A stretch of 64,000 bases of DNA from Zoogloeaceae bacterium (GTDB lineage: Bacteria > Pseudomonadota > Gammaproteobacteria > Burkholderiales > Rhodocyclaceae): NCBI GenBank assembly GCA_031256795.1, contig JAIRPW010000013.1, positions 21,039 through 85,038 on the forward strand, read 5' to 3'. Positions 1,939 to 59,882 of this stretch are shown here, piece after piece (positions within the stretch are counted from its first letter, which is position 1; each line of letters opens with the position of its first letter). The notes under the pieces are model-generated. The model did no database searches and had not been told where the DNA came from. It saw only the letters and a program-made list of their open reading frames with translations. The position numbers were made by a program, and so were the translations under genes.

Positions 1939-2853
1939 TCAGGCGGGGAAAAGCCCCGTGGAAAGATAGCGATCCCCTCGGTCACAAACGACGCTTACAA
2001 AAATCGCGTCCCGCGCCGTTTGCGCCACGCGCAGCGCCGCCACAAGCGCCCCCCCGGAAGATACTCCCGCGAAGACGCCCTCCTCCCGCGCCAGACGCCG
2101 GGTCATGTCTTCCGCCTCGGCGGCGGAAACCTCCTCGGTTTGATCAATCAGGCCGTCCTCATAAATTTTGGGAAGATAGGCGGGAGGCCATTTACGTATC
2201 CCCGCAATCTGACTGCAATCGTCCGGCTGGCAGCCAATCACGCGAATGGCGGAATTTTTTTCTTTCAGAAAGCGCGCGACGCCCATCAAAGTACCCGTCG
2301 TGCCCGTAGCGGAAACAAAGTGGGTGACGCGCCCCTGCGTATCGCGCCAGATTTCCGGCCCCGTCCCTTCATAATGCGCGCGCGGATTGTCCAAATTGGC
2401 GAACTGATCCAGCACAATGCCCTTGCCCTCTTCCTGCATCTTGCAAGCCAAATCGCGCGCAAGTTCCATGCCGCCCTCCCTGGGCGTAAGAAACAATTCC
2501 GCGCCAAAAGCGCGCATGACCTGCCGCCGCTCCCGGCTCTGATTCTCCGGCATGATGAGCAGCAACCGGTATCCGCGCAGCGCGGACAGCATGGCGAGCG
2601 CAATGCCGGTATTTCCAGAAGTCGCCTCAATCAGCGTGTCGCCGGGACGAATATCGCCCCGCGCCTCCGCTTGCCGGATCATGGAAAGCGCGGGACGATC
2701 CTTGACAGAGCCGGCGGGATTGCCGCCCTCCAGTTTCACCAGAAAAAGATTATTCCGCGCCGCGTTCTCCGCGCCGGGCAGACGCCGCAAACGCACAAGC
2801 GGCGTGCCGCCTACATAATCCTCCAACGTCTTGAATTCCGGCGTCGCAGTCAT
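1939..2853 (-). CDS. cysM: Cysteine synthase B
   Basis: [15 protein letters not shown] (PLP Lys), [20 protein letters not shown]; start refined to MTATPEF. Confidence 0.93.
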
Positions 2854-3854
2854 GCCCCTCCCCCCAGGATGGCCATATACCGCGCCACACCTTCTTCTAC
2901 GCTGGAAAAAGGCGCGGCGTAGCCCGCCGCGCGCAAACGGGAAATATCCGCCTCGGTAAAAGCCTGATACTTGCCTTTTAAAGCGTCTGGAAAAGGAACG
3001 TATTCCAAAAGCCCGCGCCGGACAATTTCCGCCAGTTCCAGCGGCGGCTCCCCCGACAGGGCGCGGCAACCGTTAATGGCGGAGACGGCAACCTCATTGA
3101 AACTCTGCGCCCGCCCGCTGCCCAGATTAAAAATCCCCGAACAAGCCGGATGATCCAGGAAAAAAAGATTGACCCGCGCGACGTCTCCCACCCAAACGAA
3201 ATCCCGCCGCTGCTCGCCAGAAGCGTAACCATGCGAACCTTCAAAAAGACGCACTTTTCCCGCTTCCCTGAATTGCGAAAAATGATGAAAAGCAACCGAC
3301 GCCATGCGCGCCTTATGCTGCTCACGCGGACCGTAAACGTTGAAATAGCGCAGCCCCACAACCTGGCTTGCCGCGTCCGGCAAACGTTGGCGCACAATCT
3401 GATCCAACAGAAACTTGGAATACCCATACACATTCAGCGGCGCCTCATATTCGCGCGCCTCCCGAAAAATTCCGCCGCCCCCATACGTCGCCGCGCTGGA
3501 AGCGTAAATCAGCGGAACTCCCCGCTCCAGACACCAATCCAGCAAGATGACGGAATAACGATAATTGTTCTCCATCATGTAACGGCCATTGGTCTCCATG
3601 GTGTCGGAACACGCGCCCTGATGCAGAATCGCCTCCACCCCGCCCTCGTAATGCCCGCTCTGAATCCGGCGGAGAAACTCTTCCTTATCCAGATAATCCG
3701 CGATCTCGCAATCTACGAGATTCTGGAATTTTTCCGCGCGGGAAAGGTTATCAACCGCGAGAATACGATCAACGCCTCGATCATTCAGGGCGCGCACGAG
3801 ATTTGAACCAATAAACCCGGCGGCGCCTGTGACAACAATGTATTTGGAAGACAT
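2850..3854 (-). CDS. hldD: ADP-L-glycero-D-manno-heptose 6-epimerase
   Basis: [44 protein letters not shown]. Confidence 0.95.
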
Positions 3855-3942: not shown

Positions 3943-4818
3943 TCAACGCAGCAGCTCTCTGAGCAATCTACCGTTGATATGTGCCTGCGTCCGCTGCAAA
4001 TCAGGCAATTCTTCCGGCAAAACGGCGGGCTGGCCATCCAGCGCGCTCAGCCAGCGTTTCCAGCGGGCGCGGTAGCGGTACAAAGAAACCTCCCCGGTAA
4101 TGTCGCTGCCCGCCAGACAAGGACGGGCGGCGGTAATCACCGTCTGCAAATGCTCCGGGAAAAAACATCCCTGATCCCAGTTGGTGCGCGCCACGCGCGC
4201 GTCCAGCACGTCTTTGTCAATGGAAAGATAAAGGGGAGAGGTTTCGGCGGCAAGTTCCTCTTGCAACGCGGCAACGAGGCTTCCGGCGTCCGGGAACATT
4301 CGCGCCGCGCCGCCGCGCCGCGCGAATATCCGCGTCCAGCCTGCCTTGACCCCAATCGTCCAATAGCGAACGCGGCCGCGGGCAAGCCCTTCCAGGCAAT
4401 TTTCCCAGGCGCGCCCAAGGCTCGCGTCCGCAGAGCAAATGCCGACGACGTCAATGCGCGCAATTTGCGGCAACCGCGCAAGCCACGCGACCCAGGAACC
4501 GCAATGAACGCCAAAAGGGAAACGCATATTGTCAGGATGATTGTCGCAGACAAGAACGCGCAGCTTTCCATACCGCCTTGCCAGACGCGCGGCCAGCAGG
4601 GCGCTGATATGGTGAAAGTCCCCGCTGCCCAGTAACACAGGGCCATGTTTCTCCGGCAGAGAAGAAAGAAAGGCCGAAACATCGCGCCAGACACGCGGCG
4701 TACAGCTAAAACGAACGCGCTCCTGCCAGTCAGAAAGATCAATCCGCCAAAGATCCTGTCCATCCGCCCGGCAGGAGCCGTCAAAATCCAGCGCGACCGG
4801 GAGGGAATCGTCACTCAT
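3943..4818 (-). CDS. Arginase/ureohydrolase-fold metallohydrolase, function unknown
   Basis: GSGDFHH, CDNHPD (DxHxD) and SIDKDVLD motifs of the arginase fold; last gene of the eight-gene cluster. Confidence 0.65.
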   Translation of the reverse strand: MSDDSLPVALDFDGSCRADGQDLWRIDLSDWQERVRFSCTPRVWRDVSAFLSSLPEKHGPVLLGSGDFHHISALLAARLARRYGKLRVLVCDNHPDNMRFPFGVHCGSWVAWLARLPQIARIDVVGICSADASLGRAWENCLEGLARGRVRYWTIGVKAGWTRIFARRGGAARMFPDAGSLVAALQEELAAETSPLYLSIDKDVLDARVARTNWDQGCFFPEHLQTVITAARPCLAGSDITGEVSLYRYRARWKRWLSALDGQPAVLPEELPDLQRTQAHINGRLLRELLR

Positions 4819-5918
4819 CGCGGACTATCCAGCCACTGTTTGTCTGCTTCAAAGCATCCGGCGATACGCCGTAAAATGAAATGGAACAAAGGGTTTTTCC
4901 CATACACCGCATGGCGCGTGAGCGTAAATTTCGCTCCCAGCGCGGCTTTCACTTCCGGGTCTGTCCAGCCCGCGACATAGCAGCGCAAACCCTCGCGCCG
5001 CGCGTAGGCAAGATTTTCCATCCAGCTCACGAAATACAGGTTATTTTCCCGCGCCATCGGATAACGAAATCCAATGGTCTTGTCGACCAGCATTCCATCG
5101 TACACAAAACACAAATTGAAGCCGATGGGCAAATCCCCAAGAAAATACAGAAAAACGCGCCCGTTGAGAGTTTCATCCGCCAGCACCGCCTGAAAATAGG
5201 CGACCGTCAACCGGTCAAAATGCGTATCACTCTGCGCGAAAACCTCTACATATTGCGCGTAAATTTCCGCCAGCACTTCCGGACGCCGCAGGTAATCGTC
5301 GCCCGTAGCGTAAATCTCTATCCGCAGCCGCTCGCGGCGACGCAATTTTCGGCGAATATCACGGCGGCGGGCAGACGAAAGCCGCGCGAGGTACTCTTCC
5401 TCATTGGCAAAGTCAATGGGAACCCAGGCAAGCGCCATTCCTTCGACGATAAAAAATCCCGCCGCGCGGCAGGCGTCGGCCACACGATCCGCCAAACGGT
5501 TCGCCTCCGGGGAAAGAAACGGCGCGTTACAGGCAATGTCCTTGACTATCAACAAGGCGGACTCCCGGTTCCATGCCCGCAACATACTTTGTACGCTCTC
5601 TTCGGGCGGTTCAGACGGCAGCGGGCAAAACTCGCTGACTGTGCTGCCCAGAAAACAGGTTTGCCAGGAAAGCCCGCGCCGCCAAAATCGTTTTCCCGGC
5701 AATTTGGCAAGAAACTTCCGCGTTTTTCCATCCGCCGTCGTAAGTAAATCGTAATTCGCCCAAAAGCCGGGAATGCCGCAGGAACAAGTAAATGTCCGAA
5801 AATCTTCGGGAGGATGGCGCAAAAAATGCCCGACCAGAGCCGCCGACTCCGCGCCGCACAGCCAGGACGGCATTTTCACGGCAGACGAAAAATCGGAAAC
5901 ATCGGGCGGCGTATTCAT
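4815..5918 (-). CDS. FemAB-like / GNAT-fold transferase
   Basis: YLARLSSARRRDIRRKLR and GFRYPMARENNLYFVSWMENL...YVAGWTDPEVKAALGA are typical of FemAB-like GNAT proteins; 4-bp overlaps with both neighbours. Confidence 0.65.
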   Translation of the reverse strand: MNTPPDVSDFSSAVKMPSWLCGAESAALVGHFLRHPPEDFRTFTCSCGIPGFWANYDLLTTADGKTRKFLAKLPGKRFWRRGLSWQTCFLGSTVSEFCPLPSEPPEESVQSMLRAWNRESALLIVKDIACNAPFLSPEANRLADRVADACRAAGFFIVEGMALAWVPIDFANEEEYLARLSSARRRDIRRKLRRRERLRIEIYATGDDYLRRPEVLAEIYAQYVEVFAQSDTHFDRLTVAYFQAVLADETLNGRVFLYFLGDLPIGFNLCFVYDGMLVDKTIGFRYPMARENNLYFVSWMENLAYARREGLRCYVAGWTDPEVKAALGAKFTLTRHAVYGKNPLFHFILRRIAGCFEADKQWLDSPR

Positions 5919-7123
5919 CCGGCCAAACTCTCTTCAAGAACCGCCGTGATCCGTGAAAAACCGGCGTCCGAAAGCCATAAACTATTGGTCACGGTCAGAG
6001 ATCGCGCCGCAAGACTGCGGGCGCGGTCGCATCCGGCCTGCGCGATCTCCGGCGTCAAAGGACGCAGATATGCATAATCGGGCAGCGCGTGGATAAATAA
6101 GCGCGTAACGCCCAGGCCCGCTCCCCACAGAATTTTGAGGGCGTCGTCCCGCGTTTTTTCGTCCGGCAAGCGCAGCAAAAAAAACGGCCAGACGCCTTTT
6201 TCGCCCTCCCTGTCGCGGAATACGCGCACACCGGACAGCGCGTCCAGCGCGGCAAGGCGGCGTTTCGCCCGCTCTTCCGTTTGTCGCTGAAAATCTCGCA
6301 GACGAGCAAGCGCGCGGCATCCGATCCCCTGCCGCCATCGGCTTACACGATGAAGAGGAATAGCAGGCGAAAAAATATCGCCCGCCGCCGACAGGAAATC
6401 CCCTCTTTTCAGCGCGCGGCGCAGAGGCTGGCCATATACCCAGGGCAAAAGGGCGGGACGATAAAAAAGCATATACGCCATCAATTCAAGTCCGCGCCGA
6501 AATTCCATGCCGCCGTCTTGCGCAAGAAAATCCCCCGCTGTTCGTGAAAATTCCGCCGCCAGCGCCGCGTCCCGCGTCACCCATACACCGCCCTCGTACA
6601 AGCTCAAACCCTTGCCGACGGCAAAGCTAAAAAACCCGGCGTCGCCAGCAAGCCCGACGCTTTGGCCATTCCGCTTCGCGCCAAAGGCCTGCGCGGCGTC
6701 CTCAACAACAAACGCGCCGTGCTTTTGCGCGATTGTTCGCGCGCTATCCACATCCGCCGCGCGCCCCGCGAGATGCGTAGGCAAAAGAGCGAGCGTATCC
6801 GCGTCGCACAGTCTGGCGAGCGCCTCCGGGTCAAAGTCCAGGCCATCCTCCGCCAGATCGCAAAGGCGCAGAGAAAGCCCGCAACGCGCCACGGCCAACG
6901 CCACCAGAGGACAGGTCCAAGCCGGCGCGATGACCGTTCGCCGCCCGGAAAGACGATGGAGCGTCGTTAAAATCACGATCAGACACGCCGTGCCTGACGA
7001 GGCCAGACCGCCGCGCGGCGCGCCAAGAAACTCCCGCGCGGCAGCGGCAAAATCTCCGCCCGCGCCGAAAAAATCGCCCCACAGAAGGGGCAAACCCGCT
7101 GTGGGCGGCATTTCTGTTTTCAA
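5915..7123 (-). CDS. DegT/DnrJ/EryC1/StrS family PLP-dependent aminotransferase
   Basis: VVEDAAQAFG and GFFSFAVGKGLSLYEGG (PLP Lys retained). Confidence 0.85.
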   Translation of the reverse strand: MKTEMPPTAGLPLLWGDFFGAGGDFAAAAREFLGAPRGGLASSGTACLIVILTTLHRLSGRRTVIAPAWTCPLVALAVARCGLSLRLCDLAEDGLDFDPEALARLCDADTLALLPTHLAGRAADVDSARTIAQKHGAFVVEDAAQAFGAKRNGQSVGLAGDAGFFSFAVGKGLSLYEGGVWVTRDAALAAEFSRTAGDFLAQDGGMEFRRGLELMAYMLFYRPALLPWVYGQPLRRALKRGDFLSAAGDIFSPAIPLHRVSRWRQGIGCRALARLRDFQRQTEERAKRRLAALDALSGVRVFRDREGEKGVWPFFLLRLPDEKTRDDALKILWGAGLGVTRLFIHALPDYAYLRPLTPEIAQAGCDRARSLAARSLTVTNSLWLSDAGFSRITAVLEESLAG

Positions 7124-7515
7124 GGCTTTTCCTTCGCCGCTTCGGAAGTCTCGTCACGCGCCAGAAAAAACACCCCTCCCAGAATCAGCGCCGCGCCCAA
7201 ATACTGCACGCCAGACAACACTTCGCCGAATAGCGGAACAGAAACCACCATGACTCCAATGACCTCTAGATGCGAAGCGGCAAACGCGGGGCCGACCGGA
7301 ATATGACGCAAAAGAGTCATCCAGGTGACAAACGCGCCAAGGTAGCCAAAAATTGAGCAATACACCCAGGGCGTAGTCAAAGCGCGCAGCAGCCACGGCC
7401 AGTCAAACGTAAGCGGCGCGGCATGAATCGCCGTGAGCTTGAAGCATACCTGCGCGAAGGTATCAAACAGCAAAAGCGCCAAAAAACCGCTGAGGAAGAA
7501 AGCGCGCGGACTCAT
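7120..7515 (-). CDS. SMR/EamA (ArnE/F-like) small membrane transporter subunit
   Basis: 131 aa, four hydrophobic helices, AQVCFK and LFGE motifs; start refined to MSPRAFF. Confidence 0.75.
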   Translation of the reverse strand: MSPRAFFLSGFLALLLFDTFAQVCFKLTAIHAAPLTFDWPWLLRALTTPWVYCSIFGYLGAFVTWMTLLRHIPVGPAFAASHLEVIGVMVVSVPLFGEVLSGVQYLGAALILGGVFFLARDETSEAAKEKP

Positions 7516-7519
7516 CGCC

Positions 7520-7885
7520 TCATCCCCCCGCGCCCACCAGCGCCACGCCGGCCAAAATAAGACTGACGCCCGCAAGACGGCCGCGGGTAAAACGCTCACC
7601 GAACCACAGGCGTCCGCCCAGCATCACCGCGACAATCCCCGCCATGCCCAGCAAAACGCCAACCGCCAGCGGCACGGTAGAAAGAAACGCAAGCCAGGCG
7701 ATAAATTCCGCAACATACGCCAGCGCGCCCAAATAAATCCACGGGCGTCCCAGCATATGCCGCCAGTGCGCCCAGCCCCGCGCCTTGGTATTTTCAATGG
7801 CGGCTTTCTTAAACGCCAATTGGCCGCACGTGTCGGTGACAAGATTCACCGCCCAGAGCAAAAAGATGAGCGTGGCGTTTGTCAT
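7520..7885 (-). CDS. SMR/EamA (ArnE/F-like) small membrane transporter subunit
   Basis: 121 aa, four TM helices, GQLAFKKA and WFGERF; start refined to MTNATL. Confidence 0.75.
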   Translation of the reverse strand: MTNATLIFLLWAVNLVTDTCGQLAFKKAAIENTKARGWAHWRHMLGRPWIYLGALAYVAEFIAWLAFLSTVPLAVGVLLGMAGIVAVMLGGRLWFGERFTRGRLAGVSLILAGVALVGAGG

Positions 7886-7910
7886 TGCGCCGCTTCCGTC
7901 TTTCGCGCGC

Positions 7911-8750
7911 TCAAGAAAGCGCCGACTCCGCCGCTTTTTCGCGCGCCAGCACGCGCCGGAAAAAATCCGCCGAACGCGCGACAACGACCGTCTTTTCCTG
8001 ATCAACCGTAATCATGTGATAGCTGTTGGCAAGAATGACCGTTTCGACAGGCGCGCCCAAAGAACGCTGGATAAGAAACACGTTTTTCAGGCTCGCTACG
8101 TCATCCTCTCGCGCGTGCAGGGCAAGCGCGGGCGCGCGGACACGATGCAAATTCTTTTGCACGTCGCGGGAAAGCCGGAAAAATTGCTCCAGCGACGGCC
8201 AGGGATTGCCGGGCAAACCGGCTGCCCGCGCGTCTCCGGCGAGCATCTTGCCCGCAATGATCCTCCGCAGCCGCTCGTTTTTGACGCCGTATGGCTCGCT
8301 TTCCATGAAGACAAGATTTCGCCCAAACCCCAGCCGGACAAAAAACGCAAGCAGCGGCGTCAAGGACGTCCAATAGCGCGGAACGCTCCAGCCATCATAA
8401 AAAAAAGTGGCGCCGTACAGCCCCAGGCCGGAGGTCTTTTCAGGATGCTCAATGGCATACTTGATCGCCAGCACGGCGCCCATCGAAAGCCCCGCCACAA
8501 AAAGATGATCCACCCTCTGGCGCAAAACTTCGGCGGCCTCCTCAACGCTGGCAAACCAATCGCGCCAGCCTGTGGCAAGCAAATCCGCCTCGCTGCCGCA
8601 GTGCCCCGCCAGACGCACGCACTCCGTCTCAAAACCCTCCGCCATAAGACCGCGCGCCACAAAGCGCATTTCACTGGGCGTACCCGTCAAACCGTGAATC
8701 AGCAAGACGCCCGCGCGGCCAGAAGAAAGAATCGGAGGAGTTGATTTCAT
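7911..8750 (-). CDS. Alpha/beta hydrolase (carboxylesterase-like)
   Basis: LIHGLTG oxyanion loop, GLSMG nucleophile, HAREDD acid, SYHMIT His. Confidence 0.85.
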   Translation of the reverse strand: MKSTPPILSSGRAGVLLIHGLTGTPSEMRFVARGLMAEGFETECVRLAGHCGSEADLLATGWRDWFASVEEAAEVLRQRVDHLFVAGLSMGAVLAIKYAIEHPEKTSGLGLYGATFFYDGWSVPRYWTSLTPLLAFFVRLGFGRNLVFMESEPYGVKNERLRRIIAGKMLAGDARAAGLPGNPWPSLEQFFRLSRDVQKNLHRVRAPALALHAREDDVASLKNVFLIQRSLGAPVETVILANSYHMITVDQEKTVVVARSADFFRRVLAREKAAESALS

Positions 8751-8844
8751 GAGGATGTAATCGCCTTATCGGTTTTTGCCGCGAAAACACATTCCGGGTA
8801 TACGTAAAAAACCAAGAAAACCCTCCGAATCTCCGTCCTGCCGC

Positions 8845-10215
8845 TCATCCTCGTTTGGCGCGGACGAGAAGCTGGTCAAGCAACGCTATCGCCAGATCAA
8901 TTTCTTCCTCGCTAATATGTAGCGAAGGCGCAAAGGTGATGACATTCTTGTAATACCCGCCCACGTCCAACACAAGCCCCATGCGCTTGCCTTTATGCTC
9001 CAGCCCGCCCGCAAGGCCAATTCCCACCATTTTATCGAGCAGGGCCTTGTTGGGCGCAAACCCGTCCGCAGCGCAAATTTCGGCACGCAGCGCAAGGCCC
9101 AGGCCATCCACGTCGCCAATTTCAGGATGACGCTTTTGCAAATCACGCAACCCAGAGAGAAAACGCGCGCCCTTTTCCCTGACCATCGTTTCATAATCCG
9201 TCTCCGCCAGCATCCGCATGGTTTCCAAACCCACCGCCGTACCCAGCGGATTGGACGCGAAGGTCGAATGCGTGGAGCCGGGCGGGAAAATTTGCGGATG
9301 GATTAGCTCCTCGCGCGCCCACAGGCCCGCCAGCGGATTCAATCCGTTCGTCAGCGCCTTGCCGAACACCAGCACGTCCGGAGTCACGCCGAAGTGCTCA
9401 ATTGCCCAGAGTTTTCCGGTACGGTAAAACCCCATCTGAATTTCGTCGACTACAAGCAAAATATCGTATTGATCCAAGACACGCTTGAGGCCTTTGAAAA
9501 AATTGGACGGCGGAATCACGTAACCGCCCGTACCCTGAATCGGCTCAATATAAAACGCGGCATATTCCGACTGCTCCGCCTTTGGGTCCCACACTCCGTT
9601 GTATTCAGATTCAAAAAGACGCTCAAAGTAGCGCACGCATTCTTCGCCGTATTCTTCCTTGCCCATCCCCCTGGGGCCGCGAAAGTGGTAAGGAAACGGG
9701 ATGAAATAGGCGCGATCCCCGAAATGCCCGTAACGACGACGATAGCGATAGCTTGAGGTGATCGCCGAAGCGCCCAGCGTGCGTCCGTGATAGCCGCCCT
9801 CAAACGCAAACATCAGGCTTTTGCCCCCTTTGGCGTTGCGCACGAGTTTCAGCGAATCATCAATGGCTTGCGATCCGCCCACATTAAAATGAATGCGTCC
9901 GTCCAATCCCCATTTTTGCTTCGCGTCCTGCGCGATCCGTTTCGCCAATTCAATTTTTGTCGGATGCAGATATTGGCTCGCAACCTGCGGCAGGGTCTCA
10001 ATTTGCCGCTTGAGCGCGGCAGACAAACGCGGATTGGCATAGCCGAAATTGACGGCGGAATACCACATCTGCAAATCAAGAAAAGGAATGCCTTCCGCGT
10101 CAAATAAATAACTGCCTTCGCAACGCGCGAAAATCTTCGGCGGCTCCGTGTAGTGCACGGTATCGCCAAACGAGCAGTATCGCGCCTCGTCGGAAAGCAG
10201 GTCAGGGGAACTCAT
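8845..10215 (-). CDS. Class III PLP aminotransferase
   Basis: FEGGYHGRT, EPIQGTGG, DEIQMGFYRTG, FGKALTNG, HSTFASNP. Confidence 0.9.
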   Translation of the reverse strand: MSSPDLLSDEARYCSFGDTVHYTEPPKIFARCEGSYLFDAEGIPFLDLQMWYSAVNFGYANPRLSAALKRQIETLPQVASQYLHPTKIELAKRIAQDAKQKWGLDGRIHFNVGGSQAIDDSLKLVRNAKGGKSLMFAFEGGYHGRTLGASAITSSYRYRRRYGHFGDRAYFIPFPYHFRGPRGMGKEEYGEECVRYFERLFESEYNGVWDPKAEQSEYAAFYIEPIQGTGGYVIPPSNFFKGLKRVLDQYDILLVVDEIQMGFYRTGKLWAIEHFGVTPDVLVFGKALTNGLNPLAGLWAREELIHPQIFPPGSTHSTFASNPLGTAVGLETMRMLAETDYETMVREKGARFLSGLRDLQKRHPEIGDVDGLGLALRAEICAADGFAPNKALLDKMVGIGLAGGLEHKGKRMGLVLDVGGYYKNVITFAPSLHISEEEIDLAIALLDQLLVRAKRG

Positions 10216-10241
10216 GACAACGTACTCCAAAATCAGTTATT

Positions 10242-10898
10242 TTAGTTTATGCCGGGAATCGCGGGAAAAAAACTTAGGACGTCGGCAAAATCGGCGACGC
10301 GCCTGTGCGGAAATTGCTGGGCGGCGCAATGCTCCGCCAGCAGACCTTTGGCAAACACGAAATCCACATGACCGGACGCGCAAAAGTCCGACCGGCCATC
10401 CCCAATTAGCAGCGTTTTTTTGCCCATCGCGCGAGCGCGCCGCGCAATGGCGCATTTACAAAGCCCTGAAGCCGGGACGCAATCAATATCCGCATGGGGA
10501 AACTCCAGCCGCCAGCCGCGCGGCCCGTCCGGCACAAGATGACAGGCATACACGGGCAGGCCGGACAAATGATACCGGCGCAAAATACGCCGGATCGCGT
10601 AATCCAGGCCATCGCTCACAATGGAAAGTTCCCCGCCGCGCGTCCGCACAGCATCCGCGAAATCCGCAAAAGTCTCGTCAATCTCAATGCCGTCAAGGAC
10701 CGCGTCCAGCTCCTCTCCGGAAGCGTCAAGACAAGCGATCTGCCGCCGCATACACTCACGAGAACCAATACGCCCCGCGATCCACTCAGCCTCAAGCGTC
10801 CGCCACTCCGGTTTTCCGAAGACCTCCAGTAAACGGTCCGTCACATCGCCCTTTGAGATCGTGCCGTCAAAATCGCACAGTACGCTCCAAACCGCCAA
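10242..10898 (-). CDS. HAD-IB phosphatase (MtnX-like)
   Basis: CDFDGTI motif I, IVSDG motif II, GLCKC, IGDGRSD motif IV; TTG start. Confidence 0.85.
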   Translation of the reverse strand: MAVWSVLCDFDGTISKGDVTDRLLEVFGKPEWRTLEAEWIAGRIGSRECMRRQIACLDASGEELDAVLDGIEIDETFADFADAVRTRGGELSIVSDGLDYAIRRILRRYHLSGLPVYACHLVPDGPRGWRLEFPHADIDCVPASGLCKCAIARRARAMGKKTLLIGDGRSDFCASGHVDFVFAKGLLAEHCAAQQFPHRRVADFADVLSFFPAIPGIN

Positions 10899-10970
10899 AT
10901 TGCCTTCTCCCTGACGCGCCGATGAATATCCTAGTTTACATTTCCTTGCTGTCAGAAACCTGTCTGTTGT

Positions 10971-11618
10971 TCATGGTTTTTCACCCGCTTGCGCGCTTGC
11001 GGCCGGATTATCAGACTCCGCATCGCCTTTCCCGCGCGCCAAGGCGTCTTTTCTTCTTTTTTCGCGTTTCGCGCGCTTCTTTTCCGCCTTCATGGCTTTG
11101 TCCTGTTTTTTCCGGGCGGCGCGCGCCTCCTGTTCGGCGCGCTGTTTCGCAATAGTTTTGGCGCGACCGGCGTCTTCCGTCGCACGCTTTAGATTTTCCT
11201 TTTCGCGCTCTTCTTCCTGCGCCGCGCGCCGAGAAAGACGCCACCGACGTTCCAAAGCGCGGCCTTCCATTTCCATGCTGCGCGTTTTTTCCAGCGCCTC
11301 CAGATAACGCGCGCGCGCGGCATTCTTACAGTCGTTTACAAAAAAGCGCGTATCGCATTGCGCGGTTTCTTCCGCCAGAGAGTCCTCCATTGCGTCGCGC
11401 CGCCGTGCCGCTTCTTCCTGTAAGGCTTTTCCGCGCTCCAAAAGACTGTCATCGCCCTCCGCAAACGCCTCTTCGCGTACCTCTACTGCCTGCGGCGGAC
11501 TATCCGCAGAAGAAAAATCCGCGTTCTCCGCGCGAACCGCTGCGCAGAGTAGGAATAGACAGAAAAAACAGCCCGCGCGCGTTACGCAGGCTGCCAGGAT
11601 TTTGGATCGATTTTCCAT
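10971..11618 (-). CDS. Exported coiled-coil hypothetical protein
   Basis: Hydrophobic N-terminus ending AVRA, CDTRFFVNDC motif, long E/R/K/A-rich helix. Confidence 0.6.
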   Translation of the reverse strand: MENRSKILAACVTRAGCFFCLFLLCAAVRAENADFSSADSPPQAVEVREEAFAEGDDSLLERGKALQEEAARRRDAMEDSLAEETAQCDTRFFVNDCKNAARARYLEALEKTRSMEMEGRALERRWRLSRRAAQEEEREKENLKRATEDAGRAKTIAKQRAEQEARAARKKQDKAMKAEKKRAKREKRRKDALARGKGDAESDNPAASAQAGEKP

Positions 11619-12802
11619 CGTGAGAACTCTTCCTGTCCGACAATTCGGTCATGACTATTTGCAAGATCCATAATTTCAGGCTTGAGATATTGCATCTTAT
11701 GCGTGTGGTAAATCACCATCACAATCGGATGCAGCAAATTATTTGTATGCTGCTCGCGGATGACAGCCAGCCGCCCGCTGGAAAGACGCACCAAGGAACC
11801 CGTCGGATAAATGCCAATGGCGCGAATAAAACGATGCACCAGACGCGCCTCAAAATGATATTCGCTCCATTCCAGAAGTTTCCTCATCGCCTGGGAAGGC
11901 TGCAAACCCTTGTGATACACGCGATCAGAGGAAATGGCGTCATACACATCCACGATGGCGGCCATTTTCCCGTACATCGAAATGCCGTTGCCGCGCAGCC
12001 GGCCAGGATAGCCGCTGCCGTCATGACGCTCGTGATGCTGCGAAACCACCTGCATGGCAACCGCAGAAATACCGGACATGCCTTTCAGAATACTGACGCT
12101 ATGATTGACATGCTCTTTGATGCGCGTAAATTCCGCAGGCGTAAGTCTGCCCGGTTTATTCAAAATGGCGTCAGGAATTCGCATTTTGCCAAGGTCGTGC
12201 AACAACGCGCCCGTGGCAATCTCCCGAATCGCCTGACAAGACATGCCCAGATGCCGCGCAAAGGCTGTCATCAAAGCGGAAACCGCGACGCTGTGCTCGA
12301 ATGTGTAGGTATCGTGCTGTTTAAGCGCGGCGAGCGGCAAAAGCGCGTTTTGGTTGCGCAGGACGGAATCCACAATTTCTTCGACCAGCGGCTCCACGCG
12401 CTCTTGCTCAATTTGCGCCCCCATGCGCACATCGTGCATTAAACGCTGAACAATCTGGTTGGCCTCCGCGTGAATTTTGCGCGACTGCGGCGCTTCTTCA
12501 GAAAGGCTGACATGCGGAGGAAGCGGAATTTCTTCCGTGACGCCGACCGCAATATCTTCCATTTTCTGCCGCAGCGATTCGTCCACTTCCTCCAGGGTTT
12601 GCGCCCCCGGAACATCCAGCCCGCGCTCGGTATCAATATACAGGTCCTGAATGCCCAAACTGCGGATTTTCGCAATGCGCGCCTTGCCGTCTACCGGAAA
12701 GGCATTGGTCAGAAAAGGATGCTCCATCCAACCGCAGTTCAGGTCATGAACATACATGCCTGGAGTCAAATCGTCGATAGAGATTTTTTTAATCATGGGC
12801 AA
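11582..12802 (-). CDS. HD-GYP c-di-GMP phosphodiesterase with N-terminal DUF3391-like domain
   Basis: IKKISIDDLTPGMYV N-terminus; HSVAVS, LLHDLGK, HHERHDGSGYP, IVDVYDAI. Confidence 0.9.
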   Translation of the reverse strand: MPMIKKISIDDLTPGMYVHDLNCGWMEHPFLTNAFPVDGKARIAKIRSLGIQDLYIDTERGLDVPGAQTLEEVDESLRQKMEDIAVGVTEEIPLPPHVSLSEEAPQSRKIHAEANQIVQRLMHDVRMGAQIEQERVEPLVEEIVDSVLRNQNALLPLAALKQHDTYTFEHSVAVSALMTAFARHLGMSCQAIREIATGALLHDLGKMRIPDAILNKPGRLTPAEFTRIKEHVNHSVSILKGMSGISAVAMQVVSQHHERHDGSGYPGRLRGNGISMYGKMAAIVDVYDAISSDRVYHKGLQPSQAMRKLLEWSEYHFEARLVHRFIRAIGIYPTGSLVRLSSGRLAVIREQHTNNLLHPIVMVIYHTHKMQYLKPEIMDLANSHDRIVGQEEFSRWKIDPKSWQPA

Positions 12803-26983: not shown

Positions 26984-27582
26984 ACACCTCCGATTCCATA
27001 TTCAAGTATTTGTTTTGAAATTTCCATTTTTGATTTCCCTTGTCGCAATTTTTTAGCCCAATTTCTACCAGGATGGATAGTATCCCATGATGAAATTTGC
27101 TGGTTGTATCTGCCACTACCAGGGTCGTGGTTTCCAAACCCATCAACAATAATATTCCAAAGTGGTTTTGTTCTTTCAATGAGTAAAGACTCGCCTAACG
27201 GGATCCAAATGTCATCAACAACTAAAAAGCGGCAATAAAAATTGTCAATACTTAAGTTTTCAGCCGCTTCAATAGATTTTCTATGCTCATTAAGCCGCTT
27301 GTAAAGATATTCACCGACAGGTATATCTAATTCAAGACCACCTTTGCGTCCGCCTTCTGGTATAGCTTTTCCTGCATAAATAGGTTGGACAAAATCTTTT
27401 TTATTTTTCTCGCTTATATTTTTGTAAAGTGGAAAATCGCCTTTATAATAAATGGCATAAATTCCAGCGCCGTTAAAAGACGGTAATTCCCTTAACGGAA
27501 AAACCTCTTTCTTGAAAATAGCGTCCGCGATGCTTACACCAAGGTTACGTTTGTCTAACGGGTTAAAAACTTCCGTGTCCAT
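26980..27582 (-). CDS. Eco29kI-family GIY-YIG restriction endonuclease
   Basis: [38 protein letters not shown]...DGFGNHDPGSGRYNQ; low GC. Confidence 0.85.
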   Translation of the reverse strand: MDTEVFNPLDKRNLGVSIADAIFKKEVFPLRELPSFNGAGIYAIYYKGDFPLYKNISEKNKKDFVQPIYAGKAIPEGGRKGGLELDIPVGEYLYKRLNEHRKSIEAAENLSIDNFYCRFLVVDDIWIPLGESLLIERTKPLWNIIVDGFGNHDPGSGRYNQQISSWDTIHPGRNWAKKLRQGKSKMEISKQILEYGIGGV

Positions 27583-28726
27583 AGTTTTTCCTTTTTGAAA
27601 AATATAAAGTCTTTCTAACAGAATCGGCAACAATAGCGCCGAGTTTCACCGGAACGGCATTGCCAATTTGCCGCATACTTTCTGTCCATGAGCAAGGGAA
27701 AAAGTAATCGTCGGGAAACGTTTGTATACGCGCCGCTTCCCGGATAGTTAAATAGCGGACAGCGCCATTATCCAGCACAATCATATTTTCACCGCCGGGG
27801 ACACCATGCGCTCCCGCCTTTATTGTTTTTGCGGGTTCGTCCATTGTGCTACCGGTGTGTCCGGGATAGACTTTTGCGCCATATTGAAATCTATGATTGT
27901 AATAATCATTGATCTCCATTGGGTTTGGTAAATCATGTATCGCGTCCCGCACTGTTACCCACGGTTTTTTTTCCGGCTGGTCAAACAGCGAAACATTAAC
28001 AGAATCAATTTTATGATGAAATTTAATGCTGTGTTTTTCCCAATATTCTTTAGTAATAAATTGGGTGTAATACAATGCTTCTGATGAATGTGTCGCGATG
28101 GGAAAAGTCCAGTTTCCGTTTATGTCGTTTCTGAAACCTACTATAAGCACACGCTCTCTTTTTTGCGGAACGCCGTAGTCGGCGGCATTTACTAAACGAA
28201 ACACAACATTATAAAAAAGACCCTTTTCATTTGCGCTTGTATGATATTTTTCAAGACGCGCCAAGTGGTCAATCCATTTTTCATTTTCTTTTTTCGTAAT
28301 TTCAGGATAGGTTAATTGCAAAATAATATATCCAAAATATTTTGAAAAACTTTTCCGTAATAGTCCACGGACGTTTTCAAAAATAAAAGCCTTAGGACGG
28401 ATTTCCGCAAGCGTCCGTGTCGCCTCAGAAAACAAATCGCGTTTGTCGTTATAGGCTTTATGCTTCCCGCCTATGGAAAATGGCTGACAGGGAGGGCCAC
28501 CGGAAAGCAAATCAATTTTATCCTGATAAGTGATAAAAGAAATATTATGAATATCATCATTAAATATCCATTCTTTTTTGTTATCAAACCCGAATTGTTT
28601 ATGATTATGGTGAAGCGTTTTTGCGGAATCCGCATCCCATTCAATAAGTTTGGTATGGGAAAAACCCGCATCGGCTACGCCCAACGCAAGTCCGCCGCCG
28701 CCCGCAAAAATTTCCAATGATTTCAC
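27563..28726 (-). CDS. C5-cytosine DNA methyltransferase (Eco29kI-type partner)
   Basis: [36 protein letters not shown]; low GC; GTG start overlaps the gatB TGA. Confidence 0.93.
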
Positions 28727-30186
28727 TTCTCCCCCCCTTCCAGTCTTTGTTTTAACAACTGGTGCACTTGCTGCGGATTGGCCTTGCCTTTTGCGGCTTT
28801 CATCACTTGTCCCACCAGCGCGTGAAAGGCTTTTTCCTTTCCCGCTTTATATTCCGCGACATTGGCCGCGTTGGCGGACAAAACTTCCTCCACCAGCTTT
28901 TCTATCACCCCCGTATCCGTAATCTGCCTTAATCCCTTTGCCGCAATAATGGCGTCGGCGTTTTCGCCATCGCCCAGCCACAACGCTTCAAATACTTTCT
29001 TGCCGATAGCGTTGGAAATTGTCGCGTCCGCGATACGGCAAACCAAGCCGCCCAGTTGCGCGGCGGAAACCGGAGACTGCGCAATTTCCAGACCTTCACG
29101 ATTTAAACGCGCGGCCAAATCCACCATAATCCAGTTGGCGCAGGATTTCGCGTTCGCGTTATTATTTCCCGCCGCTGCCAGCGCGGCCTCAAAATAATCC
29201 GCCGTTTCCAGCGTAACCGTCAGCATTGCCGCCGCATAAGCGGAAAGCCCATAATCCCGGATAAACCGCTGCCGCTTCGCCTCCGGCAATTCCGGCAAGG
29301 CCATCCGTGTCTGTTCCAGCCAATCCCTTGCTACCGCGAGCGGTAAAAGATCCGGATCAGGAAAATAACGGTAATCATGCGCGTCCTCTTTGGAGCGCAT
29401 CGTGCGCGTCTCCCCCGTCGCGGGGTCAAAAAGCACCGTGGCCTGCTGAATTACGCCGCCGTCTTCCAGTATCTCAATCTGCCTTTTTACCTCGTATTCA
29501 ATCGCCTCCTTCAAGTACCGGAAGGAATTCAGATTCTTGATTTCCCGCCGGGTTCCCAGAGGCTCGCCTGTCCGGCGCACCGAAACATTGGCGTCACAGC
29601 GAAAAGAGCCTTCCTGCATATTGCCGTCACAAATGCCGATCCAGCGCACCAGCGCGTGCAGCGCCTTCGCGTACGCAACCGCCTCTTCGGCGGAGCGCAT
29701 ATCCGGCTCAGAAACAATTTCCAAAAGCGGCGTTCCCGCGCGGTTCAAATCAATGCCAGTCTTGCCGTGAATGTCCTCATGCAAGGATTTTCCGGCGTCT
29801 TCTTCCAAATGCGCGCGGGTCAGGCGCACCCGCTTTTCATGGCACTCTTCCCCTTGCCCCGCCACAATATCAATATGACCGCCTTCTACAATCGGCAAGT
29901 CAAATTGACTAATCTGATAGCCCTTGGGCAAATCTGGATAAAAATAATTTTTCCGCGCGAATACAGATTTTTCCGCGATTTTTCCGCCTACGGAAAGACC
30001 GAACCGAAGCGCGCATTCCACCGCGCCCCGGTTCAAAGTCGGCAAAACTCCAGGCAAAGCCAAATCCACCGGGGAAGCCTGCGTATTGGCCAACGCGCCA
30101 AAGCGCGTGGACGCGCCGGAAAAAATTTTGGAACACGTAGCCAACTGCACATGCGTTTCCAGGCCAATCACGACTTCCCAGGTCAT
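28723..30186 (-). CDS. gatB: Asp/Glu-tRNA amidotransferase subunit B
   Basis: [37 protein letters not shown]. Confidence 0.97.
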
Positions 30187-30806
30187 TATGCTTTTTCCAA
30201 AGCCAACGCCCGCGTCACAGTCGGACGCGCCGCGATCCGAACACGGAATGCCGCGATATTTTCCAGGCCGCCCAGATCAACCCGCGCGAATTCCGTCCAG
30301 GAAAGCACCGTGAAAAGATAGGCGTCCGCAACGGTAAACCCACTGGCAAATTGGTATTCCCGCCCCTGCAATTCCCGGTCAAGCCAGGCAAACAGCTCCC
30401 GCAAGCGCTGACGCGCCGCGTCTTTGCTTGGTTCAGGAGCGCCCACGAAAAGCGGCACAAACCCTTTGTGAACTTCACTGGAAATAAAACAGAGCCGCTC
30501 CAGCACCTTGGCGCGCGCAAACCCGTTATCCGGTGACGGCGCAAGATTTTTCCCCGGCGCATGATCCGCGATATATAAAAGAATCGCGGGATTCTCAAAT
30601 AGCCGCCGACCATCCTCAAGCTCCAAAACCGGCACATAGCCCAAAGGGCTGACCGCGCGAAAATCCGATCCGTCCGGCAAGCTCTGGCGTACGGCATTCC
30701 CTGTTCTTTCGCAGACCACCCGCGCGGCTTCATAAGCCACGCCGGATTCCTCCAGCGCAATGCGCGAAGCCAATGAGCAGGTTCCGCTTTGATGATAGAG
30801 TTTCAT
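30186..30806 (-). CDS. Glutathione S-transferase
   Basis: [50 protein letters not shown]; start refined. Confidence 0.9.
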
Positions 30807-30822
30807 CGAGTTTTCCTCCTTC

Positions 30823-32283
30823 TTACAAATTACATGCCGGATGGCGCGTATGCCAATCCGTCGCTCGCTGAAAAACATGCGCGATGGCGAGTACTCTCGC
30901 CTCGTCAAAATAATTGCCAATAAGCTGCAATCCGATCGGCAGACCCTTGGCGTCAAAACCGCAGGGCAGCGACAAAGCCGGCAAGCCCGCCAGATTGACC
31001 GCAATCGTGTAAATGTCCGAAAGATACATCTCGACCGGATCGGCGCGCTTTTCGCCCAGCGCGAAGGCCGTGCCGGGACTGGTTGGACCCAAAAGCACGT
31101 CGCAGCGCTTGAAGGCTTCCGCGAAATCATTGGCAATCAAGCGGCGCGCCCGCTGCGCCTGCAAATAGTAGGCGTCATAGTACCCATGCGAAAGCACATA
31201 GGTTCCAATCAAAATGCGGCGTTTTACTTCCGCGCCAAATCCCTGCGCACGGCTTTTCTCGTACATCTCCGTGAGATTCGCGTATTCCGGCGCGCGGTAG
31301 CCATAGCGCACCCCGTCAAAGCGGGAAAGGTTGGAACTCGCTTCCGCCGGAGCGATTACATAATAGGCAGGCACGGAAAGCCGCATATTGGGCAAGGTCA
31401 CTTCTACGGTTTTCGCGCCCAGTTTTTGATATTCGGCAAGAGCGGCCTGAACCGCCGTCATCACTTCCGCGTCACAACCCTCGCTGAAAAACTCTTTCGG
31501 CAAACCAATCGTCAGACCAGCAAATGGCGCGTCCATAAGACGGCTATAGTCCTCTGCGGGACGTTCCAGCGACGTGGAATCCTTTTCGTCAAAACCCGCC
31601 ATCGCGGAAAGCACAAGGGCACAATCTTCAGCTGTGCGCCCGATGACCCCGCCCTGATCCAGCGAAGAGGCAAAGGCAATCATTCCGTAGCGAGAAACAA
31701 TGCCATATGTCGGCTTGACTCCCGTAAGACCGCAAAGCGCCGCAGGCTGGCGAATGGACCCCCCGGTATCCGTACCGGTGGCTACCGGCGTCAATCCCGC
31801 CGCCACCGCCGCCGCCGAACCTCCAGAAGAACCGCCCGGAACGCGCGCCTCATCCCAGGGATTTTTTACCGCGCCGAAATAAGAGGTTTCATTGGACGAC
31901 CCCATCGCGAATTCGTCCATATTGGTTTTGCCTAGCGATACCATTCCCGCTTCCCGCTCAAGTTTCGTGACCACGGTAGCGTCGTAGGGCGCGATAAAGT
32001 TCTCCAGCATTCTGGAGGCGCAGGTCGTGCGCCATCCCTGGGCGCAAAAAATATCCTTCTGCGCAAGCGGAATCCCGGTAAGCGGCGAGGCATTCCCTGC
32101 CGCAAGGCGGGCGTCGGCTTCTGTAGCCGCAGCCAGGGTTTTTTCCTCGTCTACTGTAATAAAAGCGTTGATCCGCGCGTTCATCCGCGCAATGCGATCA
32201 AGAAATAGCCGGGCAAGCTCAACACTGGAAATTTTTTTTGCGGCGAGCGCCGCGCGAAGCGTTGATAAAGAAGCGTAAATCAT
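30823..32283 (-). CDS. gatA: Asp/Glu-tRNA amidotransferase subunit A
   Basis: [36 protein letters not shown]. Confidence 0.97.
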
Positions 32284-48681: not shown

Positions 48682-49533
48682 TCAGACGGGACGGAACAGC
48701 GTAGCGGGCGAAATCTTGGCCTGAAGCGTGGCAATGATCTGCTCCAGTTCGATGCGCGCCTCGGCTTGCAGGCCAAGGCATGTAGCAATGCCATCCGCAT
48801 CCGTGCTTAGCCGAGAAGCCATTGTCAGGCGGAAGTTTCCATCGTCAGCACGCGCCATCCGATAGGAATGGAGGTGCATCGAGTCACCGACAGCCGCAGG
48901 ATTCTTGACATGGTCGAACTTGAATTCCTTCGTCATGTAGGCGAGGAACTTGTCTTGCACCACGAGGACGAGCTTTCGATTGACGTGCTCGAACGTCTGC
49001 ACCTTGTGGTGCATCTGGACGAGGATCGTCTTTGCGGTCATCTTCCAGTTCATGCCAAAGGACTTATCGGACTCTTCGCCGTTGTCTCCGCGCGCGACTC
49101 CCAGCTCTTTCAGCAGGCGTTGACGTTCGGGCCATACAGTGCCCGTCGTGTCGAGCGTTTGCAGTTCGATACCCACAAAGTCCCGAACCTTGCCTTCCTT
49201 CGCAGACACGAGCACATAGTCGATGCTTCCGCCGGGCACCGTGACCTCGGACACCAAGTGCAGCTCGTTCCCCGGTTCATGGCTGGTCAGCAGGTGCAAG
49301 CAGTCCGTGAAGATTTGCCCGTGCTGAATAAGGCGCGTGGGGCAGATGATGATCGGCTCTGGCTCCCGGCCATAGAGAACCGTACAGGAGCCAATCGAAA
49401 TCTCGGGATTGGACTTCCGAACTTTGTAGCAGCGCTTGCCAAGGAAGGGGCACTGCTGTTTCCCGATTACCCCCTGCCAGTCAATACCCGGCGCGTCGGC
49501 GGCTTTGCCGAACAGTTCGACAACTTTGCTCAT
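48682..49533 (-). CDS. NotI-family type II restriction endonuclease
   Basis: Cys4 pattern CPF..C..GSC..ICP and IDYVL...GIELQTLDTTG core as in the NotI family; ATG overlaps the MTase TGA. Confidence 0.75.
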   Translation of the reverse strand: MSKVVELFGKAADAPGIDWQGVIGKQQCPFLGKRCYKVRKSNPEISIGSCTVLYGREPEPIIICPTRLIQHGQIFTDCLHLLTSHEPGNELHLVSEVTVPGGSIDYVLVSAKEGKVRDFVGIELQTLDTTGTVWPERQRLLKELGVARGDNGEESDKSFGMNWKMTAKTILVQMHHKVQTFEHVNRKLVLVVQDKFLAYMTKEFKFDHVKNPAAVGDSMHLHSYRMARADDGNFRLTMASRLSTDADGIATCLGLQAEARIELEQIIATLQAKISPATLFRPV

Positions 49534-59371: not shown

Positions 59372-59882
59372 GGATTTTGTTTCTTTGCGAAAACGCGCGG
59401 CGTTTGCCCGCTGGCTGCTGCTGGCGGCTGGAATTGCCGCGCTGGATCAGTGGAGCAAGGGCGCGATTCTCGCGCGGTTTTTTTACGGCGAGCGGGTGGT
59501 TGTCACGGAATTTTTTAATCTGGTGCTGGTGTGGAATCCGGGCGCGTCTTTTAGTCTGCTGGCGGGCGCGGGGGGATGGCAGCGTTGGTTTTTCATCGCG
59601 CTTGCCGTCCTGGTTTCTCTTTGGATTCTGCGCGTATTGTGGGCGACGCCGGAAAGGCGCTTGCAGAGCGCGGCGTTATCCGCGATTTTGGGCGGCGCGC
59701 TGGGCAATGTGATGGATCGTTTTCGCCACGGCGCGGTGGTTGACTTTCTGGACGTGCATTTGGCGGACTGGCACTGGCCGGCATTCAACGTAGCGGATTG
59801 CGCCGTGACTCTGGGGGCGGCGCTTTTTATTCTTTGCGCCTGGCGAGAGGACGGCGCGGAACGGAACGGCAATGTCTCCTGA
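59364..59882 (+). CDS. lspA: Lipoprotein signal peptidase II
   Basis: [29 protein letters not shown]. Confidence 0.95.

Follow-up and report, generated by a model that had tools for sequence, protein, structure and literature searches.

A conserved gene cluster pairing a tandem-GNAT transferase with a ureohydrolase-fold enzyme: a putative envelope or lipid modification operon

Eight co-oriented genes on a contig from a Zoogloeaceae bacterium (NCBI GenBank assembly GCA_031256795.1, contig JAIRPW010000013.1) raise two questions: do their products act together, and if so, what do they make? The genes lie on the minus strand at 3943–10898 of a 64,000-nucleotide stretch (positions 21,039 to 85,038 of the contig), which we call the window and to which all coordinates given without a locus name refer. 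We number them G1 to G8 from the 5′ end of the cluster. An original prediction, made from the letters and their open reading frames (ORFs), had described them as an uncharacterized amino-compound or envelope modification pathway that follows the logic of the Arn system but has no glycosyltransferase. The eight genes prove to be a genuine conserved functional unit with G7–G8 as its invariant core, and we classify the cluster as a putative two-component-linked envelope or lipid modification operon built from a new enzyme set.

A scan of species-representative genomes with G7 yielded 41 loci, which were then searched by tblastn with all proteins of the window. Genome-scan loci and annotated plasmid and chromid records together gave 47 scored loci, in which many of the absences reflect truncated contigs. 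Near the G7 homologues, G8 was present in 43 of the 47 loci, G4 and G5 in 38 each, G3 in 37, G2 in 36, G1 in 34, and G6 in 32. The set recurs in beta-, gamma-, and alpha-Proteobacteria and in metagenome-assembled genomes (MAGs) labeled Nitrospira, with gene order and strand shuffled. In the window and the termite-gut loci closest to it, the genes run as one co-oriented string, whereas Uliginosibacterium, Dyella, Paracidovorax, and the MAGs labeled Nitrospira have them split into two or three divergent modules. The recurring modules are G7–G8, G4–G5 with or without G6, and G1–G2 with or without G3; G1 sits beside G2 in nearly all loci, and G4 and G5 are always paired. G7 and G8 are adjacent and on the same strand in the beta- and gamma-proteobacterial, Xanthomonas sacchari, and Bartonella loci, whereas the Rhizobium and Agrobacterium operons place G8 after G2 rather than after G7. 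Annotated versions of the set occur in X. sacchari, Agrobacterium larrymoorei, A. fabrum, Rhizobium ruizarguesonis, and Roseomonas mucosa, and a reduced form in Bartonella sp. Co-occurrence in 47 loci with rearranged order rules out chance juxtaposition of the genes.

Not all members are equally constant. The DegT-family gene G6 went undetected in 15 of the 47 loci, some of which are truncated contigs, and it is missing from complete annotated clusters, namely, all Rhizobium and Agrobacterium versions and that of Bartonella sp.; G6 is thus an accessory member. The gene hldD (2850–3854), which begins 88 bp beyond the end of G8, adjoins the cluster only in the window and in L001, a 13 kb contig of the same sequencing run with an identical G6–G8–hldD–cysM stretch. 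It adjoins the cluster in none of the 46 other loci, and the cysM flank is likewise peculiar to the window. A functional tie to hldD and the lipopolysaccharide core is ruled out on these grounds.

Within the window, the genes are tightly packed. Overlaps of 4 bp join G5 to G6, G6 to G7, and G7 to G8, and the remaining gaps measure 4 bp (G4–G5), 25 bp (G3–G4), 26 bp (G1–G2), and 94 bp (G2–G3). Catalytic motifs were located in the translations of G1, G2, G3, G6, and G8. The structural part of the original prediction accordingly stands: eight co-oriented minus-strand genes, as seen in the ORF listing and with families reproduced by Pfam and NCBIfam; their close spacing and the 88 bp to hldD; catalytic motifs that look intact, both by eye and in profile alignments; and recurrence of the genes together in other genomes, which our tblastn neighborhood survey bore out.

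What the core pair might do is suggested largely by predicted structure. G7 (4815–5918; 367 aa) is a tandem-GNAT transferase of the FemAB_like/Acetyltransf_6 type. It passes the cut-offs of two Pfam families, PF13480 (40.1 against 22) and PF04339 (30.1 against 27), and all 32 aligned members of its family match PF04339. The C-terminal family of arginyl-tRNA-protein transferases (ATE_C, PF04377) is weakly matched by 26 of the 32, with a best E value of 1e-5. Sequence and profile searches of the PDB with G7 found no match, MprF chains included. The AlphaFold2 model of G7 has a pLDDT of 90 and shows no transmembrane (TM) region. When this model was compared with the PDB by Foldseek, the top 19 structures were all aminoacyl-tRNA-dependent transferases (E values 7e-11 to 2e-9; TM score 0.46–0.54 on the query and up to 0.65 on the target; 10–16% identity). 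They comprise Sba18 and Sbb17, which are peptide synthases acting on streptothrisamine, as well as FemX, MprF, and lysyl- and alanyl-phosphatidylglycerol synthase domains. As modeled, G7 would most resemble aminoacyl-tRNA-dependent transferases.

The family of G7 is large, with about 1500 clusters at 90% identity, and some of its members are joined to other domains. Such fusions occur in relatives P0004, P0010, P0012, and P0093, at about 9480–11056 of locus L040, and at 6461–9346 of locus L048. Some carry an N-terminal 4-TM cytochrome b561 domain (PF01292). In Roseomonas mucosa, the G7 coding sequence runs into a C-terminal HAMP-HisKA-HATPase sensor kinase, with a sigma-54 activator as the next gene.

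G8 (3943–4818; 291 aa) is a divergent metallohydrolase of the ureohydrolase, or arginase, fold. It scores 32.3 against the PF00491 cut-off of 22, and its six binuclear-metal ligands (H; D-x-H-x-D; D-x-D) are present. The motifs GDFHH, DNHPD, and SIDKD of the window protein fall within stretches that are invariant among 32 relatives (GSGD-x-HH, DNHPDNM, and S-x-D-K-D), and HCGSW and NWDQG are invariant as well. A profile search aligned the motifs of G8 with the metal-ligand motifs GDHS, DAHPD, and SIDVD of arginase, and the only sequence-level PDB matches were weak ones to arginases. With an AlphaFold2 model of pLDDT 88, the best Foldseek matches were proclavaminate amidinohydrolase at the top, followed by arginases, agmatinase, guanidinase, and metformin hydrolase (E about 1e-6 to 1e-7, TM score 0.41–0.58, 11–17% identity). 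Its motifs and modeled fold together suggest that G8 is probably a divergent but active binuclear-metal ureohydrolase. Proclavaminate amidinohydrolase cuts back the guanidino moiety of an intermediate derived from arginine, and G8 shares the fold and the complete metal-ligand set of this enzyme, of agmatinase, and of guanidinase. It differs from the known ureohydrolases in forming a separate family (2261 clusters at 90% identity) with the extra invariant motifs HCGSW and NWDQG and in always standing in a lipid-type gene context. We set aside canonical arginine catabolism by G8 and G2, in the manner of RocF and RocD, given the distance of G8 from true arginases and the lipid and transport setting.

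The other enzymes belong to families that could prepare, tailor, or turn over an amine-bearing compound. G1 (10242–10898; 218 aa, TTG start) is a HAD-IB phosphatase of an MtnX-like subfamily. It passes TIGR01489 (92 bits against 81.55) and matches PF12710, with the HAD motifs DFDGT, SDG, and GDGRSD, and falls short of the MtnX equivalog models (95.5 against 292). Its closest PDB sequence is MtnX (2fea, 2.4e-16), followed by phosphoserine phosphatase (4e-5). G2 (8845–10215; 456 aa from ATG, in an ORF that reaches 10230) is a pyridoxal phosphate (PLP) enzyme of the class III fold (PF00202, 7.7e-75) with the motifs DEIQMG and FGKA, the latter containing the PLP lysine. It meets none of the NCBIfam cut-offs, the best match being the archaeal acetylornithine-aminotransferase family PRK05769. 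Its best PDB sequences are a Pyrococcus alanine/serine racemase (6.6e-59) and GABA aminotransferases, which are omega-aminotransferases; by homology, G2 would be a transaminase or possibly a racemase. In the Rhizobium/Agrobacterium, Bartonella sp., and X. sacchari loci (L043–L047), G2 is 71–81% identical to the window protein. G7 is merely 26–50% identical in the same loci, and the GNAT, ureohydrolase, and 4-TM neighbors are 24–55% identical.

G3 (7911–8750; 279 aa), a cytoplasmic serine esterase or lipase, had been called simply an esterase. It does have the alpha/beta-hydrolase fold (PF12146 Hydrolase_4, 2.6e-18), with a GLSMG nucleophile elbow and candidate acid and histidine sites in HARED and SYH, and its closest PDB structures make the label more specific: LipS and a bacterial monoacylglycerol lipase (1e-30 to 1e-28). 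G6 (5915–7123; 402 aa) is a divergent PLP aminotransferase of the DegT/DnrJ/EryC1 family. Its match to PF01041 (4.2e-38) covers the N-terminal half only, the motifs EDAAQ and AVGK are present with the lysine kept, and the best PDB matches are 2-deoxy-scyllo-inosose aminotransferase and perosamine synthase (about 1e-21 to 1e-20). The score of G6 against the ArnB model NF008658 is 77.4 bits, the cut-off being 631.

G4 (7520–7885; 121 aa from ATG) and G5 (7120–7515; 131 aa from ATG) are 4-TM, half-size DMT/EamA-like subunits. The original prediction called them SMR-type. Two 4-TM half-size subunits are indeed encoded, but the SMR and ArnE/ArnF cut-offs are missed and a description as EamA-half or ArnE/F-like subunits fits better, with only G5 passing EamA. 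G4 scores 23.7 bits against EamA (PF00892; cut-off 28.2) and does not match SMR (PF00893). G5 scores 29.2 against EamA and 19.7 against SMR (cut-off 23.7). The best NCBIfam models for the pair are ArnE and ArnF, yet the scores are far under the cut-offs (G4 against ArnE, 24.4, cut-off 92; G5 against ArnF, 35.0, cut-off 99). Both subunits carry the motif D-T-x-x-Q-x-x-F-K in TM1, and for G4 at least 90% of 44 homologues retain its Asp; a conserved acidic residue at this position would fit a cationic substrate.

These features bear on an Arn-type explanation, in which an amino sugar made by the DegT enzyme would be placed on polyprenyl phosphate and flipped by the ArnE/F-like pair, with enzymes whose genes lie elsewhere attaching it to lipid A. 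Beyond the ArnE and ArnF matches and the DegT family of G6, such a pathway could draw on the PmrA-like two-component system of relatives and on the position of the window cluster beside hldD and 14 kb from a heptosyltransferase gene. The enzymes that define the pathway are missing, however. ArnA, ArnC (GT2), ArnD (deformylase), and ArnT (GT-C) have no equivalents in the cluster, among its recurrent neighbors, or among the annotated neighbors of the plasmid copies, and sugar-nucleotide and glycosyltransferase genes are likewise lacking. ArnD has a polysaccharide-deacetylase fold, unlike the arginase fold of G8; DegT is dispensable in many versions; the ArnB, ArnE, and ArnF scores are far too low; and the hldD adjacency is absent from all 46 other loci. 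At the level of gene families, then, the likeness to Arn (a DegT-family aminotransferase, a small 4-TM DMT-like pair, and a PmrA-like regulator in other genomes) appears superficial, and we hold an Arn-type pathway to be very unlikely. Pfam and NCBIfam did bear out the earlier statement that the cluster has no glycosyltransferase and no ArnC or ArnT equivalent. The Arn-like logic itself finds no support, with DegT missing from 15 of the 47 loci, model scores that are too low, and a G8 that is not of the ArnD type.

A different setting emerges from the genes that surround the cluster elsewhere, which were identified by clustering the noncluster ORFs across loci and scanning the clusters for families. 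A MipA/OmpV outer-membrane protein occurs in 17 genome-scan loci, and annotations also place one next to the clusters of Agrobacterium and Rhizobium. About 20 loci contain a 2CSK_N sensor kinase with an OmpR-type regulator; the best match of the response regulator is PmrA (7.5e-65), those of the kinase are QseC and PmrB, and all remain below the equivalog cut-offs. A tripartite exporter recurs as well, combining an ABC transporter of the DevA/DevC/MacB type with a membrane-fusion protein and, in some loci, with TolC. Lipid enzymes are found among the neighbors: a FabF-like ketoacyl synthase (KAS) in 13 loci, with an acyl carrier protein (ACP) annotated alongside in X. sacchari, and a membrane fatty-acid desaturase and a CMAS-type methyltransferase within the Rhizobium operon.

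Two reduced versions are informative as to what accompanies the core. In Extensimonas vulgaris (locus L017, 8887–18847), G7–G8 is the sole part of the cluster present, and the order is MipA, G7–G8, a PF12261 “thermostable hemolysin” family protein, an AMP-binding enzyme, a Haem_oxygenas_2 iron enzyme, an SDR, a TPR protein, a response regulator, and a 2CSK_N kinase. On the plasmid of Bartonella sp. HY328 (locus L044, 8451–14500), G2–G7–G8 lies beside an MBOAT O-acyltransferase and an AlgX-like SGNH protein. This variant is without the 4-TM pair, the HAD phosphatase, and the esterase; the MBOAT/AlgX pair stands in the place of the 4-TM pair, and cycA, encoding a D-Ser/D-Ala/Gly transporter, is located just upstream.

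The recurrent neighbors suggest a product of the membrane lipid or envelope, under two-component control of an envelope type. We therefore propose that the operon makes or modifies a membrane lipid, or a lipid-linked envelope substituent, that bears an amine and is cationic or zwitterionic, and that it moves the product away from the cytoplasmic leaflet, a reading that we hold tentatively and with slightly less than even confidence. A lipid is a more probable product than a free small molecule. The original prediction had also envisaged a translocated, envelope-related product, and the conserved neighbors (the PmrA/QseB-like system, MipA/OmpV, DevA/MacB-TolC, KAS with ACP, desaturase, and CMAS) lend support to that part of it. 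Of its interpretation as a whole, a conserved envelope-related unit survives, the Arn analogy is not supported, and the choice it left between a small molecule and a lipid now leans toward the lipid.

How the parts would work together can be outlined as follows. In the cytoplasm, G1 and G2, optionally with G6, would supply or tailor an amino head-group precursor. At the inner membrane face, G7 would put an aminoacyl group on a lipid or lipid-linked acceptor; its donor would most likely be an aminoacyl-tRNA, as for MprF, FemX, and Sba18, and possibly arginyl-tRNA, the alternative being an acyl group from acyl-ACP. G8 may then strip a guanidino or amidino group, for example by converting arginyl to ornithyl with release of urea. 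G3 could edit or turn over the ester-linked product, like the hydrolases that accompany aminoacyl-phosphatidylglycerol synthases, and a G4/G5 heterodimer would flip or export the cationic product. Where present, MipA or the ABC-TolC system may see to onward delivery. Between a tRNA-dependent and an acyl-ACP amino-lipid version of this general model, we consider the tRNA-dependent one somewhat more likely. Its most specific form would run from arginyl transfer by G7 from Arg-tRNA to a lipid or lipid-linked amine, through conversion to ornithyl by G8 on the lipid and a flip by the 4-TM pair, to delivery to the outer membrane by MipA/OmpV or DevBCA-TolC under PmrAB-like control. Such an MprF-independent arginyl-to-ornithyl route would sidestep the absence of an ornithyl-tRNA; taken as a complete chain, we regard it as improbable.

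Since the core of the cluster is G7–G8 and G7 resembles aminoacyl-tRNA-dependent transferases, MprF or Dlt offers a closer analogy than Arn. The G7 model shares the synthase-domain fold of MprF and other aminoacyl-phosphatidylglycerol synthases (5vrv, 4v36, 4v34/35, 6lv0, and 7duw; E 3e-10 to 5e-9, TM score 0.49–0.54 on the query and up to 0.61 on the target). The cluster also shares their division into synthase, flippase, and hydrolase, here as a separate translocator (G4/G5) and esterase (G3), and its relatives are associated with a PmrAB-like regulator. Aminoacyl-phosphatidylglycerol synthases have partner hydrolases such as PA0919, AcvB, and AhyD. The differences are nonetheless considerable. 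Neither G7 nor any of 31 relatives matches the Pfam family of the MprF synthase domain, the matches being confined to PF13480, PF04339, and, weakly, PF04377. MprF has a fused N-terminal multi-TM flippase domain, which is absent from the 367 aa of G7, and because G7 has no TM region, translocation would fall to G4/G5. MprF systems, in turn, lack the ureohydrolase, the HAD phosphatase, and the one or two PLP enzymes of the cluster. As judged from the G7 model, the cluster would thus resemble an MprF system split into parts, yet it is not a member of that group.

The likeness to Dlt, Pat, and Alg systems is found in Bartonella sp., where the arrangement of the trio G2–G7–G8 beside MBOAT and the AlgX-like SGNH protein suggests that a group made by the trio is passed over the membrane to an extracytoplasmic acceptor. 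The window cluster differs from these systems in having no MBOAT, SGNH, or DltA-type ligase, and a carrier protein occurs just in some gamma-proteobacterial versions.

Several points weigh against the proposal of a modified, exported lipid. Its steps were drawn from gene families, folds, and genomic context. The structural matches of G7 are at the level of the fold (TM score about 0.5 at 10–16% identity), the ATE_C matches are weak, and the model also matches the acetyl-CoA-binding tandem GNAT of the clavulanate pathway (5e-8). The label of aminotransferase is not certain for G2, because its nearest solved relatives include amino-acid racemases, and identities of just 11–17% to known ureohydrolases leave a wide substrate class for G8. 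An aminoacyl-tRNA donor on its own leaves the phosphatase and one or two PLP enzymes unexplained. The envelope context comes from loci outside the window, since a tblastn search (E 1e-5) of the rest of the 64 kb window found no MipA, two-component system, KAS, or ABC transporter. Some of the taxon labels, moreover, are those of MAG bins.

The lipid genes next to the cluster would also accommodate an N-acyl amino-lipid pathway, akin to those of ornithine lipids or ceramides. Here, G7 would be an acyl-ACP- or acyl-CoA-dependent N-acyltransferase acting on an amine from G1, G2, and G6, with G8 trimming the head group, G3 remodeling acyl chains, and G4/G5 and ABC-TolC exporting the lipid. The dedicated KAS and ACP of the gamma-proteobacterial versions, the AMP-binding enzyme and SDR by G7–G8 in Extensimonas, and the desaturase and CMAS methyltransferase in Rhizobium would all find a place in it. 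So would the membership of G7 in PF13480, an acyltransferase-type GNAT family, and the acetylornithine-aminotransferase family as the best NCBIfam match of G2. The nearest structural relatives of G7 are, however, tRNA-dependent and do not use acyl-CoA or acyl-ACP, and most members of its family weakly match ATE_C. The CoA-binding motif Q/R-x-x-G-x-G/A was not seen in the second GNAT domain on an unsystematic inspection by eye. Known routes offer no precedent either: a 2026 review of ornithine and related amino lipids names just the routes of OlsBA, OlsF, and OlsH, none of which uses an enzyme family of the cluster, and a search of it for the terms aminotransferase, arginase, and FemAB gave no mention (PMC12971839). 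We consider an N-acyl amino-lipid pathway unlikely, although it deserves serious consideration.

A second alternative is in keeping with the closest structural matches of G7. Sba18 and Sbb17 use a soluble, aminoglycoside-type amine, and the cluster might make a soluble cationic metabolite, such as a polyamine-like compound, an aminoacylated amine, or a small natural product, to be secreted through the SMR-like pair (as by MdtJI) and ABC-TolC. All six enzymes look soluble when their sequences are read by eye, with no signal peptide or TM segment; polyamine and amino-acid metabolism characteristically involves the ureohydrolase, class III aminotransferase, and HAD families; and the acidic residue in TM1 of G4/G5 is like the cation-binding site of SMR exporters. 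This is hard to square with KAS and ACP, the desaturase, CMAS, the likeness of G3 to monoacylglycerol lipase, MipA/OmpV, and MBOAT/AlgX, as it is with the fusion of G7 relatives to membrane domains. A soluble product is, in our estimate, distinctly unlikely. As a system, the cluster departs from the enzymes that G7 resembles. Sba18/Sbb17, FemX, and the ATE/Bpt transferases supply the best structural matches (10–16% identity) and the weak ATE_C profile, but their systems lack a ureohydrolase partner, a 4-TM pair, and any two-component or outer-membrane setting.

Alternatively, the cluster could be an island for sensing, detoxification, and efflux of an exogenous cationic compound, with modification by its GNAT, phosphatase, esterase, and amidinohydrolase. 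In favor of this are the two-component system, the SMR-like pair, and a MacB-like ABC transporter that occurs with TolC, as are the guanidine and metformin hydrolases among the ureohydrolase relatives of G8. High conservation of G2 (71–90% identity) argues for a fixed endogenous substrate instead, the KAS, ACP, desaturase, and CMAS partners are biosynthetic, and six enzymes so tightly coupled in translation would more typically be expected of a pathway. We find a detoxification island highly doubtful.

A sigma-70-like sequence upstream of G1 (10928–10955, minus strand; CTGACA, 16 nt spacer, TAGGAT) agrees with the consensus at 9 of 12 positions in a consensus scan, which is weak evidence, and is a candidate for the start of the operon. 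No riboswitch or other known RNA element was found at E ≤ 1 between 2500 and 13000, and none of relevance in seven related loci. Terminator-like hairpins in the same interval number 41, about twofold more than in shuffled sequence (20.7 ± 4.6); because most lie inside minus-strand coding regions, the excess is probably an effect of composition and codon use rather than a sign of terminators. Directly upstream of the cluster, at 10971–12802 on the minus strand, are two ORFs, neither of which is kept beside the cluster elsewhere. One encodes a 215-aa, highly charged protein rich in Glu, Arg, Lys, and Ala, with a hydrophobic N terminus and no Pfam match, and the other, of 406 aa, looks HD-GYP-like by eye from its translation.

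The remainder of the window contains housekeeping genes, including gatCAB, mreBCD-PBP2-rodA, tolB, bamC, and the heptosyltransferase gene. Among them are two DNA methyltransferase genes (27563–28726 and 49530–50696, both on the minus strand), one of the C5-cytosine and one of the N6/N4 type. A glutathione S-transferase-like ORF (30186–31136, minus strand) lies between gatB (28723–30186) and the gatA amidase gene (30823–32283); its true start is probably internal, as the annotated 5′ end overlaps gatA. Two long minus-strand ORFs, 57380–59305 (641 aa) and 59827–61284 (485 aa), have no Pfam match at 1e-5, and the coding strand of the first is uncertain because a 952-aa ORF on the opposite strand (56513–59371) overlaps it. 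The window originates from a termite-gut metagenome, its closest relatives being termite-gut MAGs labeled Accumulibacter, Azonexus, Azoarcus, and Betaproteobacteria. In public sequencing runs, the sequence was found only in DNA metagenome runs from termite gut, and no RNA run was found to contain it. Apart from its compact, single-operon form, the copy of the cluster in the window is unremarkable.

Full-text literature searches, with combinations of the family names and with MprF/FemX, amino lipids, PF04339/DUF482, and thermostable hemolysin, returned no paper in which the gene set is given a product or phenotype, in agreement with the earlier statement that none had been characterized; public annotations of the cluster proteins are generic. 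The carriers include the plant pathogens Xanthomonas translucens, X. sacchari, Paracidovorax, and Agrobacterium, the symbiont Rhizobium, the skin commensal Roseomonas mucosa, and Rhodocyclales of wastewater and termite guts, and several of them are culturable and genetically tractable. A tandem GNAT resembling tRNA-dependent enzymes is an unusual companion for a dedicated ureohydrolase. If the proposal of an amine-bearing, exported lipid or lipid-linked substituent is right, the cluster would represent a widespread pathway of envelope-lipid modification that serves a purpose like that of Arn, MprF, and Dlt with different enzymes. Its characterization could then bring to light a membrane lipid not seen before and another basis for resistance to cationic peptides or polymyxins, and could provide a function for the two large families of G7 and G8, which so far have none.

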